From a virus, in IMG/VR virus record IMGVR_UViG_3300047454_000095: a stretch of DNA of 64,000 nucleotides. The stretch is one strand, 5' to 3'. The notes beneath the pieces are model-generated. The model saw only the letters and a program-made list of their open reading frames with translations. It was not told the origin of the DNA and did not search any database. Below, in pieces: positions 8,193-64,000 of the stretch; positions within the stretch are counted from its first letter, which is position 1, and the number at the start of each line of letters is the position of its first letter. Position numbers and translations under genes: made by a program.

Positions 8193-8205
8193 ATTAATAT
8201 TTATC

Positions 8206-11698: not shown

Positions 11699-12196
11699 CT
11701 ATTTATCCATGTTCTTGAGTTTTTCTAACAAACTATTACGGTCTGTAACTACATATCCTTCGCCTGAAACAACGCCATCTGGTGAATCTCCACCATCTTT
11801 ATCCTGTTTTTCCTTCTTAAGTTGTAGTTCAACCATTTTAAGTTTCTTGTCTAATTTTGCAACTTTAGCATCAAGGTTAGTTTTTAGCATATTACCTGCT
11901 ACTTCAAACACCCTACCACTATATCTGCTTTCAACATTCATACCCAAGTCCATTAGATCTTCATATGCATTCATAGACTTCTCAGCAACTTCGTTTAGTT
12001 CCTTATCTGCTAATTCGCCTAAGCCTTTCACTTGTGGTAATGCCGCAGTAATTTTATCCATCTCAGCAATACTACGTTGAGTTTCTTCATGCTCTACAAT
12101 AGCATGTTTCTTTTCTGCTTTAGCAGATTGTTCCTTGTCTTTCTGAACAATCTCTTTGCTGTCTGGCATATTAAGTAATTCTTCTAATTTCTTCAT
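11699..12196 (-). CDS. gp16: Terminase small subunit (gp16-like)
   Basis: Helical; RVFEVAGNMLKT resembles the RAYEVAGQLIK motif of T4-like gp16 proteins; C-terminal coiled coil. Confidence 0.65.
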   Translation of the reverse strand: MKKLEELLNMPDSKEIVQKDKEQSAKAEKKHAIVEHEETQRSIAEMDKITAALPQVKGLGELADKELNEVAEKSMNAYEDLMDLGMNVESRYSGRVFEVAGNMLKTNLDAKVAKLDKKLKMVELQLKKEKQDKDGGDSPDGVVSGEGYVVTDRNSLLEKLKNMDK

Positions 12197-14401: not shown

Positions 14402-14438
14402 ACTAATATTTATCTAAAAAATAAAGTGGGTATAGAAT

Positions 14439-15123: not shown

Positions 15124-15154
15124 TTATTTGCTCCTATTACTTTTATTTATCATA

Positions 15155-20252: not shown

Positions 20253-20273
20253 TATTTATGCGTTCGATAAATA
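20253..20273. promoter_or_regulatory. Back-to-back late promoters (TAAATA on each strand)
   Basis: TAAATA on minus at 20253-20258 and on plus at 20268-20273, between divergent gp13 and gp14. Confidence 0.65.
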
Positions 20274-49315: not shown

Positions 49316-49354
49316 TGTTATTTCCTAACGTTACATTTGTATTTATCATATCTG

Positions 49355-58280: not shown

Positions 58281-61200
58281 TTATCCTATTACCACTGCCA
58301 TTTTAATAGCAATTTCTTCTGCATCTTGTGCGGACACAGCACCTGAACTACCTGCAACTGAAACCCACTGACCTGCTTGATCGTAAATCTCAACCCTGTC
58401 ATCCTGTGTATTAAAACGCATCATTCCTGTTTCTGGTGTTGGATGTCTATTTGACAAAGTACCAGTTGGAATAACAAATCCGCCAGTTCCTTCAATCTTG
58501 AAGTAACCAGTACCAGTTTGAGCAAGAGTAGTAATTGCGCCTGCTACAGTATTAGTTATCGAATTTTGATTGAATCCAAAATTTTCTACAACAACTTTAC
58601 CAGTTCCGTTCGCCAAAAGGTTCAAATCAGCGTTTGTAGTAATGGTTCTTACTGTATTTCCTTCGATTTCAATGTCATCGACTAATATTTTATTTACATT
58701 AAACCTTGTTGCGTTTGCATCAGCAATCTGTGTTCCACCTGCGTAAAAACGTATAGTATCATCGTCTGCACCCGGTGTTGCTTCTGCTGTAATATATGTA
58801 TCTTGGTCAACATCACGCACACCATTTAATGTGATCCACTGTCCATCATAACCTTCAAACACATCTGTGTCTGTGTTATAACGTATCATACCATTTACGC
58901 CTGTACCTGGACGTTGTGCTGTTGTACCTTTTGGTATTGTTAATGAACCTGTTGAATTAATCTCAACTGTTTCACTGCCTGGATTAAGAACAATGTCTCC
59001 TGGTGCTGAAATAATGTTTGCTTTGAAACTTAAATCATCAACAACAATACTTCCTGTTCCACTTGCACGTAATTCTAAGTCTTGGTTTGTGTTAGTTGTT
59101 TGAATAACATTAGTATTAATGTTAATATCATCAATCTGTGCCTCACCTGTGTAAACTTTTTTCCATTCATGTGTTGAAATACCTAAGTCAAATGTTCCGT
59201 CTTGGCTTGGTACAAGGTTACTTGCAATACCTGCAACAATTTGTATGCTATCACTTGCTTCATCACCAATGGTAATGTTACCACCTATTGTAACATCTCC
59301 TGTTACATCTAAGTTTCCTGTGATGTTTACATTGTCTGCAAAGTTAATAATACCGTCAGCACTGTCAATGTTCAAGTTTCCACTTAAACTTTCTACAGTG
59401 TTGCCACTTAATCTTGTGTTACCTGTTTGAATCTTGTCGCCGTCAATAATAGTTGTACTTGTGCCAGTGCTAAATCTAACACTTTGTAAAGTATCAACGT
59501 TAAAGTTTGCGTTAGTAAATGTAACAGTACCAGATGCTTGATCAACATGGAATACATCACCAACTCTAAAGTCACCTTTATGGTCAACTGAACTAAAGTA
59601 AATGTTTGCGTCATTTAATTTTGTAACTTCTTGACTTTGTACAACTGTTGTTGAATCATTATCAACTGCTTTACCGTTACCAATGTATGCAAGGTTCTGA
59701 GAAATAAGGTACATAACAACGCCGTTACCGTCGCCGTATATTCCATAGTTACCATAAACACATGCACTACCAATTGATCTAATCTCACAACCAAAGTCTG
59801 AGAAGTCAACCAGTTCCATTCCAGTTGCATAAGCACCGCCACCAAAGCCGATTGTCTGATCTAAAATAGTTTCGTCAGTAAGTGTTGTTGAAGTATCTGT
59901 ACCGTTAAATCTTAATAATAATTTTGTGTTGTTATCATTTGAAACTTCGTTCAATGGTGGTGTGTATGAACCTGCTGTGTATCTTGCATTGTCTGAAATT
60001 CTAAAATCATCTACATAACCGTTGAAAGCATTTGAAGCATCATACACTGCACCAATAATAAACGGCTTACTTGTTCCAAGTGTGCTACTAAATGCATTAT
60101 CACTATCAACTCTTGCACCGTTAACATATAAATTAATTGTATTACTTGAACGTGATACTGCAATATGTGTCCATGTTGTTGCTGATAACGTTCCGCCGGA
60201 TAATATCTCTGCACCATTGTAATAAACTTTTACTGTACCACCTACGTGATATATGTATAAGCCTGTGTCAGTTGCTGTACCGGCTCTCATATCAACTAAT
60301 GACTGTGTACCTGTTACGTTGTTTCCGTAGAACCAACCTTCAATAGTAAAGTTTGCTGTTCCTAAACCAAAGTCTGGATCATTTGCAATGCTGATATAGT
60401 CGCCGGTGCCGTCAAGTTGTAAACTACCAGTGCCGAATTTTTTAATTGTTGTATCTACTTGTGCTTGTCCTGAAACAACTACTGTCTTTCCACCACGTTC
60501 AAATTTGGTTTCAAGTCCTGCCGCGTTACCGTTCAAGTAAATGTAGTTTCCATCTACTTCATTTACTGTTGCACTAATTACAGTTCCGCCTGCTTGTGTG
60601 TATTGAAACACTTCAGACGCTGTTGGTGTTCCAACAAGTCCGCTTAATTTAACTTTAGTACGTCCTGTACCTTTTAATCCTGTAGTACCATTAACACCTT
60701 GTATCGCTTTGTCGGCAAAATATACAAAAGAGTTTAGCCATTCAATTCTTGCACCATTGGTTGCGTATAATCCAACTGCTCCAGGAACAATAAATGTTAC
60801 TGCATGGAATAACATACTTGCTTCTTTTGATCCTGTTACTGCTACAGAGCCATCTAAGTATGCACCACGTCCTGCATCTCCTTGATCAAAGCCTCTTGGA
60901 TCACTTGCACTTGTTACACTACCTTTTGTTATTACAGTTACGTTTTTAACATAAGGTGATCTTGAAGTAACATTAAAGTTACTTGCAAATCTAAAAGCAT
61001 ATCCATTGTCATTAATGCTATCGTAGTAAAAATCTTTGATTGACAAGTTCATAACACTTGTTTCACCTTGCAATACAAAACAATCATTGTTGTTTGTTCC
61101 TGCTGTAGGTGTAATGTTTACTGATCTAATACCTTCACCTAAGATTGCAACACCCGCTGGTACTGTTAAAGGAAATACTTCTTCATAATCACCTGGGTAA

Positions 61201-61991
61201 ATGTGAATAGTGTCTCCTGCACTTGCAGAAGTTAATGCTTTTGTAATAGTTGTGTATGGTGCTTGTGGATGATTACCAGCATTTGTATCATTACCATTCT
61301 TAGCAACATAATAAATGTTGCCTGGAGTTGCTGTTAAGTCCAAGTCTGATAATGTAATACTGTTTGCAACAACTGTTGTTGCTGTTACATCATCAAAGTA
61401 ACCATGATTCCACTTTTTAGTTGCGTCACCAATGGTGTATATGTTTGTTGCATCTGGTATTAGGTTACTGGCAATGTCTGCATTTATTGTAATACTATCT
61501 GTATCGTCATCACCAATAGTAATATCACCGTCTGCACTGATGTTACCAGTTGCATGTAAGTTACCAGTAACGTTTGTATTACCTACAAAGTTAATAGTAC
61601 CTGTCCCGTTAGGACGAAATTCTAAGTTTTGGTTAGTTCCTAATGTGCGAATTACACTACCGTCTATTTCAATATCATCAATTTGTAATCTATCTTGGTA
61701 AATTACGCTGTTTGGTGTTGCAATATTGAACTGACTTGCTGTAGTAGAGATAGTATTAGTACCACCGTTGATTGTTATGTTACCAATCGGTAATGTAGTG
61801 TCTAAAATATCTAATGATTGTATTCTTGCTGAACCGTTTATATCGAGCTCGGCTGTAGGCGTTGATGTCTTAATTCCAATACGGCTATTATTAACATCTA
61901 AATAAAGTAGGTCTGTTTCAAACGCTAAATCCACTCCTTGACGAAGCAAATTTGCCTTTAAAAGCGGACCAGATATACGACCAACTGCCAC
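58281..61991 (-). CDS. 1236-aa fiber-like protein with a concanavalin-A/LamG-like domain
   Basis: GTG start with AGGAG; FGTGSLQLDG...FTIEGW...WTHIAV...YVDDFRIS (about 59900-60450); two P-x-GT...R(Y/F)NT modules. Confidence 0.75.
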   Translation of the reverse strand: MAVGRISGPLLKANLLRQGVDLAFETDLLYLDVNNSRIGIKTSTPTAELDINGSARIQSLDILDTTLPIGNITINGGTNTISTTASQFNIATPNSVIYQDRLQIDDIEIDGSVIRTLGTNQNLEFRPNGTGTINFVGNTNVTGNLHATGNISADGDITIGDDDTDSITINADIASNLIPDATNIYTIGDATKKWNHGYFDDVTATTVVANSITLSDLDLTATPGNIYYVAKNGNDTNAGNHPQAPYTTITKALTSASAGDTIHIYPGDYEEVFPLTVPAGVAILGEGIRSVNITPTAGTNNNDCFVLQGETSVMNLSIKDFYYDSINDNGYAFRFASNFNVTSRSPYVKNVTVITKGSVTSASDPRGFDQGDAGRGAYLDGSVAVTGSKEASMLFHAVTFIVPGAVGLYATNGARIEWLNSFVYFADKAIQGVNGTTGLKGTGRTKVKLSGLVGTPTASEVFQYTQAGGTVISATVNEVDGNYIYLNGNAAGLETKFERGGKTVVVSGQAQVDTTIKKFGTGSLQLDGTGDYISIANDPDFGLGTANFTIEGWFYGNNVTGTQSLVDMRAGTATDTGLYIYHVGGTVKVYYNGAEILSGGTLSATTWTHIAVSRSSNTINLYVNGARVDSDNAFSSTLGTSKPFIIGAVYDASNAFNGYVDDFRISDNARYTAGSYTPPLNEVSNDNNTKLLLRFNGTDTSTTLTDETILDQTIGFGGGAYATGMELVDFSDFGCEIRSIGSACVYGNYGIYGDGNGVVMYLISQNLAYIGNGKAVDNDSTTVVQSQEVTKLNDANIYFSSVDHKGDFRVGDVFHVDQASGTVTFTNANFNVDTLQSVRFSTGTSTTIIDGDKIQTGNTRLSGNTVESLSGNLNIDSADGIINFADNVNITGNLDVTGDVTIGGNITIGDEASDSIQIVAGIASNLVPSQDGTFDLGISTHEWKKVYTGEAQIDDININTNVIQTTNTNQDLELRASGTGSIVVDDLSFKANIISAPGDIVLNPGSETVEINSTGSLTIPKGTTAQRPGTGVNGMIRYNTDTDVFEGYDGQWITLNGVRDVDQDTYITAEATPGADDDTIRFYAGGTQIADANATRFNVNKILVDDIEIEGNTVRTITTNADLNLLANGTGKVVVENFGFNQNSITNTVAGAITTLAQTGTGYFKIEGTGGFVIPTGTLSNRHPTPETGMMRFNTQDDRVEIYDQAGQWVSVAGSSGAVSAQDAEEIAIKMAVVIG

Positions 61992-62113
61992 CTTTTTCTC
62001 CTATAAACGGGGATCCTGTCCCTCTACCCTGTTAGACAAAAACTTGCCTCTATCGCTGGATAACCACGGTTTGTCCTGCAATTGACTTGGCCAGCCCTTC
62101 ATTGCATTAATAG
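61992..62113 (-). ncRNA. Candidate structured cis-regulatory leader RNA
   Basis: 50 G+C in 62001-62100 in an AT-rich genome; several complementary segments; lies between TAAATA (62114-62119) and a Shine-Dalgarno. Confidence 0.5.
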
Positions 62114-62132
62114 TATTTATCGTTTTTGGATA

Positions 62133-64000
62133 TTAGCCTAAGATAAGGTTCCAAAGGAAGTTAATTGACTCAGCGTATTCTTCAGTAACAGATTCACCAC
62201 CACCTGCCGCTAAAACCCACTGTGTTCCGTTCCAACTTTCAAGGTATCCTCGCTGTGTATTGAAACGTGTAAGACCCTGTTCTGGACTTGTGGGTCTTGC
62301 TGTATCATCACCATATGGAACAACAAGTCCCATAGTTTGATCAAACTTTAAGTAAGAATATATGTCTGCAAGACTAAATGTAAACGGTGTGTTAAGTGTA
62401 TTAGTAATTGTGTTATTCTTAAACACAAGATCTTCCTGACTAATACTACCTAATCCGTTGGATAAAAACTGAATATCTGAATTAGGTGTAGCACTTGTTA
62501 TTGTATTACCATCAATTGAGAAACTATTCTGCGAATCAAGTCTATTTGTTTGCAATGTTATGCCATTAATTGTAGTATTACTTGCATTTCCTGTAACTAA
62601 CGTAAACTGATTGTTGTTTAGATCAATATATGTGTCTCTGTCAGTATCATATAATCCATCAAAACTAACATTACCTCCGCTATAACCTTCAAATATTCCT
62701 AAGTCTGTATTATAACGCAAATCACCCACGTTATCTTTACGTTGTGCGTTTGTACCTGTTGGCAAACCTAAGTTATTAGTTGCTGACATAGTAAGATTAG
62801 TAGTTGGTGCTAATGTTAAATTAGTTATATATGATCCTAATATATTACTTCTTGCAGTAACATTATCAAATACAACATTTCCAGTTCCATTTGCACGTAA
62901 ATCTAAATTTTCGTTTGTATTACTAACACTAATAGTGTTTGCATTGAAGTTAAAACTATCTAATGCTAATTCGTTAAAGTAACCTTTTCTCCAACGTCTT
63001 GTATTTGTACCTAAATCATATTTGTTTGTTGTGTCTGGATATAAGTCTTGTGCAAAAGATGTTGTAAAGTCAACAGTATCACTTGGTTGATCTCCAAGTG
63101 TTACAAGATTTCCGCCAAGTGTTAAATTACCTGTAACATCTACACTTGCCATTCTTGTATTTGTAAGTAAGTTGTGTATGTTTGAAGGAGATGCAAAGTT
63201 AATTGGACCTGCAACGGATCTAATTGTGTTAGGAGAAAGAATTCTTATTGCTCCTGTTTCAATAGTTCCACCATCAATAAAAGATGTATTTGCATTTGTG
63301 CTTACTCTTAAACTTGAAAGTCCTGTTGCATCAACTGTGTCAGCATCAATGCTTGTTGTTCCATCTTTAAGATTTACAAAAAATGTATCTCCAACTTTAA
63401 AGTTACCTTCTTGGTCTTGTGATTGATAGTAAACTTTTCCGTTGTTTAGTTTTGTAACTTCATTTGCAACAATAGTTTGTGTAACATCATTAGTTACGTT
63501 CTTACCTGAACCAATATAAGCAAAGTTGTGTGATATTAGATATGCTAAACAGTCTGCTCCATCTACTTCAATACCTTTATTTCCATAAACACTTGCTGAA
63601 CCAATGGATCTTATTTCACCGCCTTTTATTAATACGCTATCACTACGCCATCTACCAGCGCCATCCACCATGTACATTGCTCTATTAGCGAAATAAGCGA
63701 ATGAATTCAACCACTCAACCCTAACACCGTTTGTCATTGTAATGGCATCAACACCTGGAGTAATAAAAGTTACACTGTGAAACAACATACTTGCTTCATT
63801 TGTATCATGATCACAAACACTACCATCTACAAGTGCGCCTTTACCAGCGTCTCCAGAATCAAAACCTCTTGGATCACTTGCACTTGTTGTTTGTCCTTGT
63901 GTAATAACTGTTACATTTCTAATATATGGACTACGTGATGTAACTTTCATGTCGCCTGCAAATCTAAAAGCATAACCTTTATCATTTGTGCTATCATAAA
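62133..64000 (-). CDS. 3' part of a fiber-like paralog of 58281-61991 (start outside the window)
   Basis: Frame stays open to 64000; shares YAFRFA...TSRSPY...SASDPRGFD.GDAG with its neighbour. Confidence 0.75.
   Translation of the reverse strand, partial: YDSTNDKGYAFRFAGDMKVTSRSPYIRNVTVITQGQTTSASDPRGFDSGDAGKGALVDGSVCDHDTNEASMLFHSVTFITPGVDAITMTNGVRVEWLNSFAYFANRAMYMVDGAGRWRSDSVLIKGGEIRSIGSASVYGNKGIEVDGADCLAYLISHNFAYIGSGKNVTNDVTQTIVANEVTKLNNGKVYYQSQDQEGNFKVGDTFFVNLKDGTTSIDADTVDATGLSSLRVSTNANTSFIDGGTIETGAIRILSPNTIRSVAGPINFASPSNIHNLLTNTRMASVDVTGNLTLGGNLVTLGDQPSDTVDFTTSFAQDLYPDTTNKYDLGTNTRRWRKGYFNELALDSFNFNANTISVSNTNENLDLRANGTGNVVFDNVTARSNILGSYITNLTLAPTTNLTMSATNNLGLPTGTNAQRKDNVGDLRYNTDLGIFEGYSGGNVSFDGLYDTDRDTYIDLNNNQFTLVTGNASNTTINGITLQTNRLDSQNSFSIDGNTITSATPNSDIQFLSNGLGSISQEDLVFKNNTITNTLNTPFTFSLADIYSYLKFDQTMGLVVPYGDDTARPTSPEQGLTRFNTQRGYLESWNGTQWVLAAGGGESVTEEYAESINFLWNLILG

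Follow-up and report, generated by a model that had tools for sequence, protein, structure and literature searches.

Why should a late promoter box of a T4-like phage stand more than a hundred nucleotides away from the gene behind it, and what fills the space between them? The question is raised by one locus of the window (by which we mean the whole 64,000-nucleotide stretch of viral DNA analysed), which carries the structural module of a T4-like myovirus, with tail sheath, tail tube, terminase and large fibre proteins. The locus is made up as follows:

62133..63950, minus strand: upstream gene, 605 amino acids, matching the same baseplate wedge PHROG families as the gene downstream; the promoter box follows 12 nt after its stop codon
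61992-62132: intergenic gap of 141 nt between the 605- and 1236-amino-acid genes, both on the minus strand
62114..62120, minus strand: late promoter box of T4 type, ATAAATA (TAAATA at 62119-62114)
61989..62002, minus strand: translation initiation region, with the SD AGGAG at 62002-61998, the spacer AAAAAG (N6) and GTG at 61991-61989
58281..61991, minus strand: regulated gene, a virion protein of 1236 amino acids (MAVGRISGPLLK...) with a GTG start, of a gp7-like baseplate wedge family with a LamG domain

The preliminary description of this DNA had singled out the gap for its length, with TAAATA at one end and AGGAG-N6-GTG at the other, and these coordinates hold. The leader between the ATAAATA box and the AGGAG-N6-GTG of the 1236-amino-acid gene covers about 115 nt and is unusually long: its box is 122 nt from the start codon, the sole such distance among the copies of ATAAATA in the window, as against 5–24 nt upstream of an ORF start for 6 of the 10 others (8198-8204, 11700-11706, 14407-14413, 15144-15150, 20253-20259 and 49340-49346, all on the minus strand). 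Placement at 5–24 nt fits a late-promoter box, and these positions chart probable late promoters whose leaders are very short; the heptamer itself is depleted in the window (11 copies observed, 23 expected). Going by T4 promoter geometry, transcription of the long leader would start at about A62108. A G+C-enriched stretch of about 105 nt lies inside the gap, between ATAAATA and AGGAG. The even share of G+C (50 in 100) first noticed there is found again in 62000-62099 (0.50, against a background of about 0.36), but it does not set the leader apart, the coding stretch 62200-62299 having the same 0.50. Neither a terminator nor a sigma-70 promoter was found in the gap, and no intrinsic terminator (a G+C-rich stem of 5 bp or more with a run of U after it) within 61800-62300; the hairpin called P4 below has 4–5 bp and lacks the U tract expected of a terminator for the upstream gene. 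Contigs from three RNA libraries, of three different studies, span the junction of leader and coding sequence at 100% identity, though contigs cannot prove transcription. In two of them (X17 and X19) coverage stops at about 62093 on the upstream side, which in contigs cannot show a 5′ end.

The target of the leader had been taken for a receptor-binding fibre. Its 1236-amino-acid product falls instead in PHROG ‘baseplate wedge subunit’ families (E ~1e-188), with Pfam Laminin_G_3, and its middle region matches the ‘gp7 baseplate wedge initiator’ of cultured cyanophages; since the PHROG and cyanophage annotations say baseplate wedge subunit or gp7 ‘wedge initiator’, the fibre label is an assumption. 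The two neighbours appear to be partial paralogues, because both match the same baseplate wedge PHROG families. The structured leader is seen with the downstream paralogue only, the 5′ region of the 605-amino-acid gene running to the window edge.

The family to which the downstream protein belongs numbers thousands of members. Searching with residues 1–200 of the 1236-amino-acid protein, we obtained 69 viral contigs, and a homologous leader is recognisable in all of these down to about 50% protein identity, and in a few below. An RNA-only DNA pattern, GACC...ACYGTGGT....C.GCRA, returned random as well as true matches, every true one having TAAATA upstream and an MA(V/I)GRISGPLLK gene downstream. 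Both searches together gave 105 distinct leaders, later 121. A covariance model, built from 25 clean sequences on a structure set by hand, was run over both strands of 100 sources (827 kb); 99 of these, the window among them, gave a single significant match each, and so did five contigs 188-278 kb long. The motif is present as a single copy and confined to one gene family, that of MA(V/I)GRISGPLLK, in all true instances.

Single-sequence folding of the leader gives a free energy no better than that of shuffles (z = +0.82); the case for structure is a comparative one, not a thermodynamic one. When 100 leaders are aligned to the covariance model, 93% of the pair cells hold standard pairs, compared with 71.8% after shuffling, and the covariation score is 0.51 versus 0.16, none of 500 shuffles being as high; sliding the partners by 1–3 columns, as a control, brings the score to 0.10 or less. 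Covariation among homologous leaders, which had been proposed as a check at the outset, is therefore strong. As the model alignment is fitted to the structure, the counts were repeated free of alignment, using the invariant ACYGUGGU and P4 as anchors, and these tables return the same P2 and Pa pairs. A plain MAFFT alignment, not fitted to any structure, also returns the same pairs, with 92.1% paired versus 85.6% for shuffles (0 of 500). On the raw MAFFT alignment RNAalifold recovered no more than fragments of the structure, and the hand-set structure and covariance model were used instead; mutual information over the anchored blocks was dominated by the split between type A and type B leaders and revealed no new long-range pairs. 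Judged by comparison of sequences, the folded RNA leader in the gap is real and strongly conserved, and it is composed in the window of the following elements, in transcript order:

62077..62106, minus strand: P1 hairpin, with the outer stem UGCAAU/AUUGCA, the inner stem GGC/GUC and the loop GGCCAA (62092-62087)
62063..62076, minus strand: junction and Pa 5′ strand, GGACAAAC followed by C-G-U (62068-62066), the invariant GG (62065-62064) and U62063
62054..62062, minus strand: P2 5′ strand UAUCC (62062-62058), A62057, and the Pa 3′ strand G-C-G (62056-62054)
62032..62053, minus strand: P3 region, a variable and optional hairpin, weak in the window copy, which contains UUUUGUCU
62024..62031, minus strand: P2 3′ strand GGGUA (62029-62025), with G62024 opposite U62063
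62010..62022, minus strand: P4 hairpin GGGA-CAGGA-UCCC, upstream of the SD

P1 starts 8 nt after TAAATA, which by T4 promoter geometry would place it some 2 nt from the 5′ end of the transcript. The pairing of TGCAAT (62106-62101) with ATTGCA (62082-62077), already seen in the preliminary description, proves to be the outer part of this covarying hairpin. P1 occurs in 98 distinct sequences, nearly all of them predicted to form a hairpin of 8–10 bp, with the GNCC of the loop unpaired in 91 of 105 leaders; all eight modelled pairs have double-sided changes, and the mean MFE is -8.5 kcal/mol compared with -3.4 for shuffles. The apical loop reads GACCAA in most relatives and GGCCAA in the window. 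The TGGCCA palindrome noticed there does exist, but it is limited to a few related leaders, almost all others having GACC in the loop. One leader (L053:2916-2994) lacks the P1 hairpin altogether while keeping the pseudoknot core and P4, and so is a natural P1 deletion; the codon before its Gly codon is UUA instead of NUU. In some others P1 carries an insertion of 20–35 nt that makes it a branched element (L086:8154-8295, L147 and L184; L374, L379, L382 and L410), the insertion adding either another arm with GACC or one of the form GAGGGAGAG...CCC.

Downstream of P1, no instance departs from ACYGUGGU, and this holds even for the leaders located by protein search only. P2 exists in several covarying forms (UAACC/GGUUA, UAGCC/GGCUA, CAACC/GGUUG, UCGUC/GACGA and CAGUC/GACUG; UAUCC/GGGUA in the window), with an extra pair, 63-102, across a one-base bulge that is C-G, A-U, G-C or G-U; in the clade of the window C62031 faces A62057 as a mismatch. 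Pa pairs YGU with GCR, and its loop encloses the P2 5′ strand. Without exception its pair Y52-R66 is either U-A (102 leaders) or C-G (16). Pa and P2 thus probably form an H-type pseudoknot core with P3 in its third loop, in which Pa has a single covarying pair that may reflect only one or two evolutionary events. A different pseudoknot, between GCUGG in the P1 loop region and the downstream CCAGC, had been suspected from the window sequence; across 118 relatives it is paired in 43.8% of cells (45.1% in shuffles), with covariation of 0.036 (0.042 in shuffles), and we abandon it. The same applies to the switch that had been built on two mutually exclusive pairings of UUUUGUCU: these are not conserved because UUUUGUCU lies in the variable P3, where it is different or absent in relatives. 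P3 itself may be a GNRA- or UNCG-capped hairpin, two hairpins, or missing altogether (GCAAUGUAAGG). P4, by comparison, is paired in 98% of cells and has double changes in all four of its pairs, with GGCA/UGCC among its variants and CCGUG-AAA-CACGG and CGGUG/CACCG in type B leaders. Several core nucleotides are strongly conserved while unpaired (GUGG, GCAA and UGNAA), which suggests a tertiary fold or a bound partner.

That the conserved element is not an RNA at all, being instead a small ORF, the remnant of a decayed gene or a DNA-level protein-binding site, is hardly credible in the light of these patterns. In the window copy a 33-codon ORF does cross the leader (62003-62102, minus strand, AUG 62102-62100, UAG 62003-62001), but it is not conserved, a 1-nt indel breaking it in a nearly identical relative (131 versus 130 nt). 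The lengths of P1 and P3, moreover, vary by non-multiples of three, and substitutions keep base pairs, not codons.

The leader does not seem to end its interactions at the start codon, as two stretches early in the coding sequence are complementary to parts of it:

61978..61984, minus strand: UUGGUCG, +8..+14 of the coding sequence (codons 3-5, Val-Gly-Arg), complementary to the P1 loop
61959..61970, minus strand: GGU CCG CUU UUA, +22..+33, an island of synonymous constraint complementary to the SD and spacer

Read in reverse complement, the consensus P1 loop CGACCAA matches UUGGUCG exactly; in the window the loop GGCCAA (62092-62087) lies opposite UUGGUC (61984-61979), one of the pairs being G-U. 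Among 116 leaders, three distinct sequences of leader plus coding region have the Gly codon GGA in place of GGU, and these alone have GUCC, not GACC, in the loop. In a wider alignment the GUCC/GGA leaders form two lineages (L058 and L285; L217 with L205, L293 and L309), which have unrelated P1 stems and different core forms. Replacements of G-C and U-A also occur between loop position 6 and position 2 of the coding sequence, this flanking position of the loop helix being mismatched in 13% of sequences, and there is one counter-example (L369) with the loop GCCC opposite GGUC. The Gly codon at the pairing site is GGT in 100 of 101 sequences, while Gly sites further downstream use 3–4 codons freely, a constraint on a synonymous site that fits pairing between the P1 loop and the codon. 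The complementarity of the P1 loop to codons 3-5, which is new in this analysis, is thus supported by independent compensatory changes. We had also considered the UGGU of the core as the main partner of the loop, and rejected it: it is the coding region, and not the core, that compensates the A-to-U change in the loop.

The second stretch, GGT-CCG-CTC-TTA at +22..+33, has a codon entropy of 0.4–1.0 bits, compared with 1.5–2.5 bits for the same amino acids downstream. Its complementarity to the SD and spacer takes the form GAGAGCG/CGCUCUU in type B leaders, AAGAG/CUCUU in type A and AAAAG/CUUUU (+28..+32) in the window, and compensation is partial, CUC becoming UUG where the spacer has ACAA, and CUU where it has AAAG. 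The helix is short and its register differs between the types, with many mismatches in type A, where the pair (-3,+30) is formed in 37 of 64. Profiles of duplex energy along 190 nt of coding sequence have sharp minima at the same two places, -8.1 kcal/mol at +8..+14 and -7.1 kcal/mol (with the SD and spacer) at +22..+33, compared with about -1 to -3 kcal/mol in the background. The predicted probability of the SD being unpaired is about 0.6 in type A leaders, so its closure may be weak. A further complementarity, CAAUAC/GUAUUG, between the 3′ side of P1 and the spacer preceding the SD, gives a marginal signal (-4.90 kcal/mol for the own pairs, -4.55 when permuted). Taken together, these data show an RNA-level constraint inside the first 11 codons.

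Both pairings lie inside the 30S footprint or border on it, so that the leader would keep the initiation region closed and thereby limit or gate translation. The reading that we favour, with moderate confidence, is of a leader that acts in cis to control translation of the gene for a gp7-like wedge protein, presumably made in few copies, by closing its initiation region, either constitutively or until a protein or ligand opens it. The long-range pairings would keep the ribosome-binding region (about -20..+19) closed, limiting or gating initiation on an mRNA made from a late promoter, and the pseudoknot core would be a scaffold, or the docking site of a protein or small ligand that shifts the balance between closed and open forms. 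Limiting translation makes sense for a gp7-like wedge protein, of which few copies are needed and which is expressed from a late promoter, and the GTG start in the clade of the window points in the same direction.

P1, being so near the 5′ end, would probably also guard the mRNA from decay that depends on this end. One could go further and ask whether the leader is nothing but a constitutive stabiliser or processing element, in which the 5′ hairpin and pseudoknot resist RNase E or exonucleases, or mark a processing site, with no role in translation. In all leaders some 2 nt precede P1 in the inferred transcript, and 5′ stem-loops are known to stabilise mRNAs (PMC3014915). A simple hairpin would suffice for this purpose, however, and the invariant junction, the compensated complementarity of loop and codons and the synonymous constraint in the coding sequence would be left unexplained, which makes this alternative unlikely.

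Does the leader belong to any known family? The search of Rfam that had been proposed found no such family, with no match at gathering thresholds in the 64 kb, none at E<=10 in 61700-62500 and none at E<=1 in ten relatives. The resemblance to GEMM riboswitches (RF01051) entertained at first is not borne out by cmscan even at E<=10, and in place of two hairpins with a GNRA tetraloop and its receptor the leader has GACCA in the P1 loop, and GNRA only in the optional P3, which many relatives lack. What stands of the preliminary proposal is an uncharacterised structured cis leader behind a late promoter, outside every Rfam family and strongly covarying; the switch itself does not.

A riboswitch of another kind, whose core would be the aptamer of a small metabolite or second messenger and whose ligand would alter access to the initiation region, deserves separate consideration. 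Its conserved, strongly covarying fold is aptamer-like, and the leader resembles preQ1-I/II/III, SAM-II/V, fluoride, guanidine-III and c-di-GMP-I (GEMM) riboswitches in being a compact pseudoknotted fold with invariant unpaired nucleotides near the SD, as in the preQ1, SAM-II and fluoride classes. It differs from them in lacking a covariance-model match and a GNRA tetraloop-receptor pair, in having the SD outside the pseudoknot, and in preceding a single gene family. T4-like cyanophages carry riboswitch-like and other cis-regulatory RNAs, namely glnA, manA, wcaG and PhotoRC-II, all of which have Rfam models, belong to the same broad aquatic T4-like group and also came from comparative genomics of marine metagenomes (PMC2864571, PMC10665884). 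Their covariance models give no match to the leader, and they precede metabolic or photosynthesis genes, whereas our leader precedes a structural one. Against a riboswitch there are also the failure to match any Rfam family even at E<=10, the confinement to one gene family with one copy per genome, where several linked gene families would be expected, a product that is a virion protein without a metabolic link, and the lack of a terminator and of a conserved anti-SD within the aptamer-like core. A search for an expression platform found no terminator and no conserved alternative to the core, only the complementarity of SD and spacer to +26..+32, with its partial compensation. We consider a riboswitch quite unlikely: a motif found before a single gene, in a single copy and with no terminator, is more in keeping with a translational leader dedicated to that gene than with a metabolite riboswitch.

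Compact pseudoknotted motifs whose junction nucleotides are conserved are common near phage genes, and the leader could be a new self-cleaving ribozyme that trims polycistronic late transcripts. We regard this as very improbable, as the leader matches no Rfam ribozyme family (hammerhead, twister, pistol, hatchet or HDV-like), no candidate cleavage site is evident, and the promoter directly upstream already sets a defined 5′ end.

Closer parallels to the favoured translational leader are found among mRNA operators. The leader pseudoknot of T4 gene 32, an autogenous operator, is likewise gene-specific and of H-type; it precedes the initiation region within the 5′ leader and is conserved in relatives (PMC3014915). 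Our leader probably has the same arrangement, with one variable pair in support of Pa, but no sequence relation to it, and the nucleic-acid-binding product of gene 32 explains its own regulation, as opposed to the virion wedge or fibre product here; unlike gene 32, our leader also has P1, P4 and a pairing from a loop to the coding region. For this last feature the leaders of Escherichia coli rpsO (S15) and of the MS2 maturation gene offer a comparison: there, bases of a hairpin loop or of an upstream segment pair with sequence at the start codon or beyond it, and ribosome access depends on how the leader folds. The rpsO pseudoknot pairs with the early coding region, and the product of the MS2 maturation gene is an attachment protein present in few copies. 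Neither system is related to ours in sequence or host, and S15 entrapment and MS2 kinetic control are properties of those systems. By this analysis the leader described here belongs to no Rfam family, nor to the gene 32, rpsO or MS2 systems, and may work like such leader operators. The partner of its core could be a protein (autogenous as in T4 gene 32, or acting by entrapment as S15), a small ligand, or nothing at all.

The motif marks a clade of uncultured aquatic T4-like phages, since cultured cyanophages share only the middle domain of the protein and P-HM1 lacks the leader. Searches by blastn and tblastn with the leader or N-terminus of the window found no match in a collection of cultured phages; when the protein of a relative was compared with cultured phages, the middle domain alone matched cyanophage gp7, and the P-HM1 gp7 region has no copy of the leader motif. 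The nearest virus record (G001) is a fragment without the leader region. Type B leaders are found on contigs of 188-278 kb (G002-G006, of L027, L040, L052, L037 and L111), to which CheckV assigns a completeness of 53-76%, and since contigs of this length are rated as only that complete, some of the phages in this clade appear to have genomes of jumbo size. Distant homologues of the gene (about 40–55% identity over a short N-terminal segment) have other G+C-rich hairpin leaders behind TAAATA (L065:2909-3003, and upstream of the match in L060 and L061). Leader-based control of the wedge gene may be older than the present motif.

A screen of IMG/VR by Fremin, Bhatt and Kyrpides in 2023, which drew on the same type of data as ours, yielded 8,495 unnamed candidate structured RNAs, with cis-regulatory candidates within 25 nt of phage genes such as GP20 and GP32 (PMC10690425). 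The main text of that paper makes no mention of baseplate or tail genes, and the leader may be an unnamed entry among the 8,495 candidates listed with it (PMC10690425). The motif is widespread, with more than 100 distinct versions from viral metagenome contigs, and is a candidate for a new Rfam family. Its covariation is unusually clear, and the link between a 5′ hairpin loop and the first codons lends itself to testing, as the combinations of loop GACC or GUCC with codon GGU or GGA, which are synonymous, make a clean genetic test possible.

In conclusion, structured leaders that regulate phage structural genes are, to our knowledge, rare, and this one offers a compact model of how a phage may control when, or in what amount, a protein of the baseplate or of host recognition is made. 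It is tempting, if rather unlikely to be correct, to see in the pseudoknot core a sensor of a host metabolite, an ion, or a phage or host protein such as unassembled wedge subunits, the binding of which would open the pairings of the P1 loop and of the SD with their codons. If so, the output of a wedge-initiating or host-contacting protein would be coupled to the state of the infected cell, and the leader would represent a new class of regulatory RNA specific to the virion genes of abundant aquatic myoviruses.
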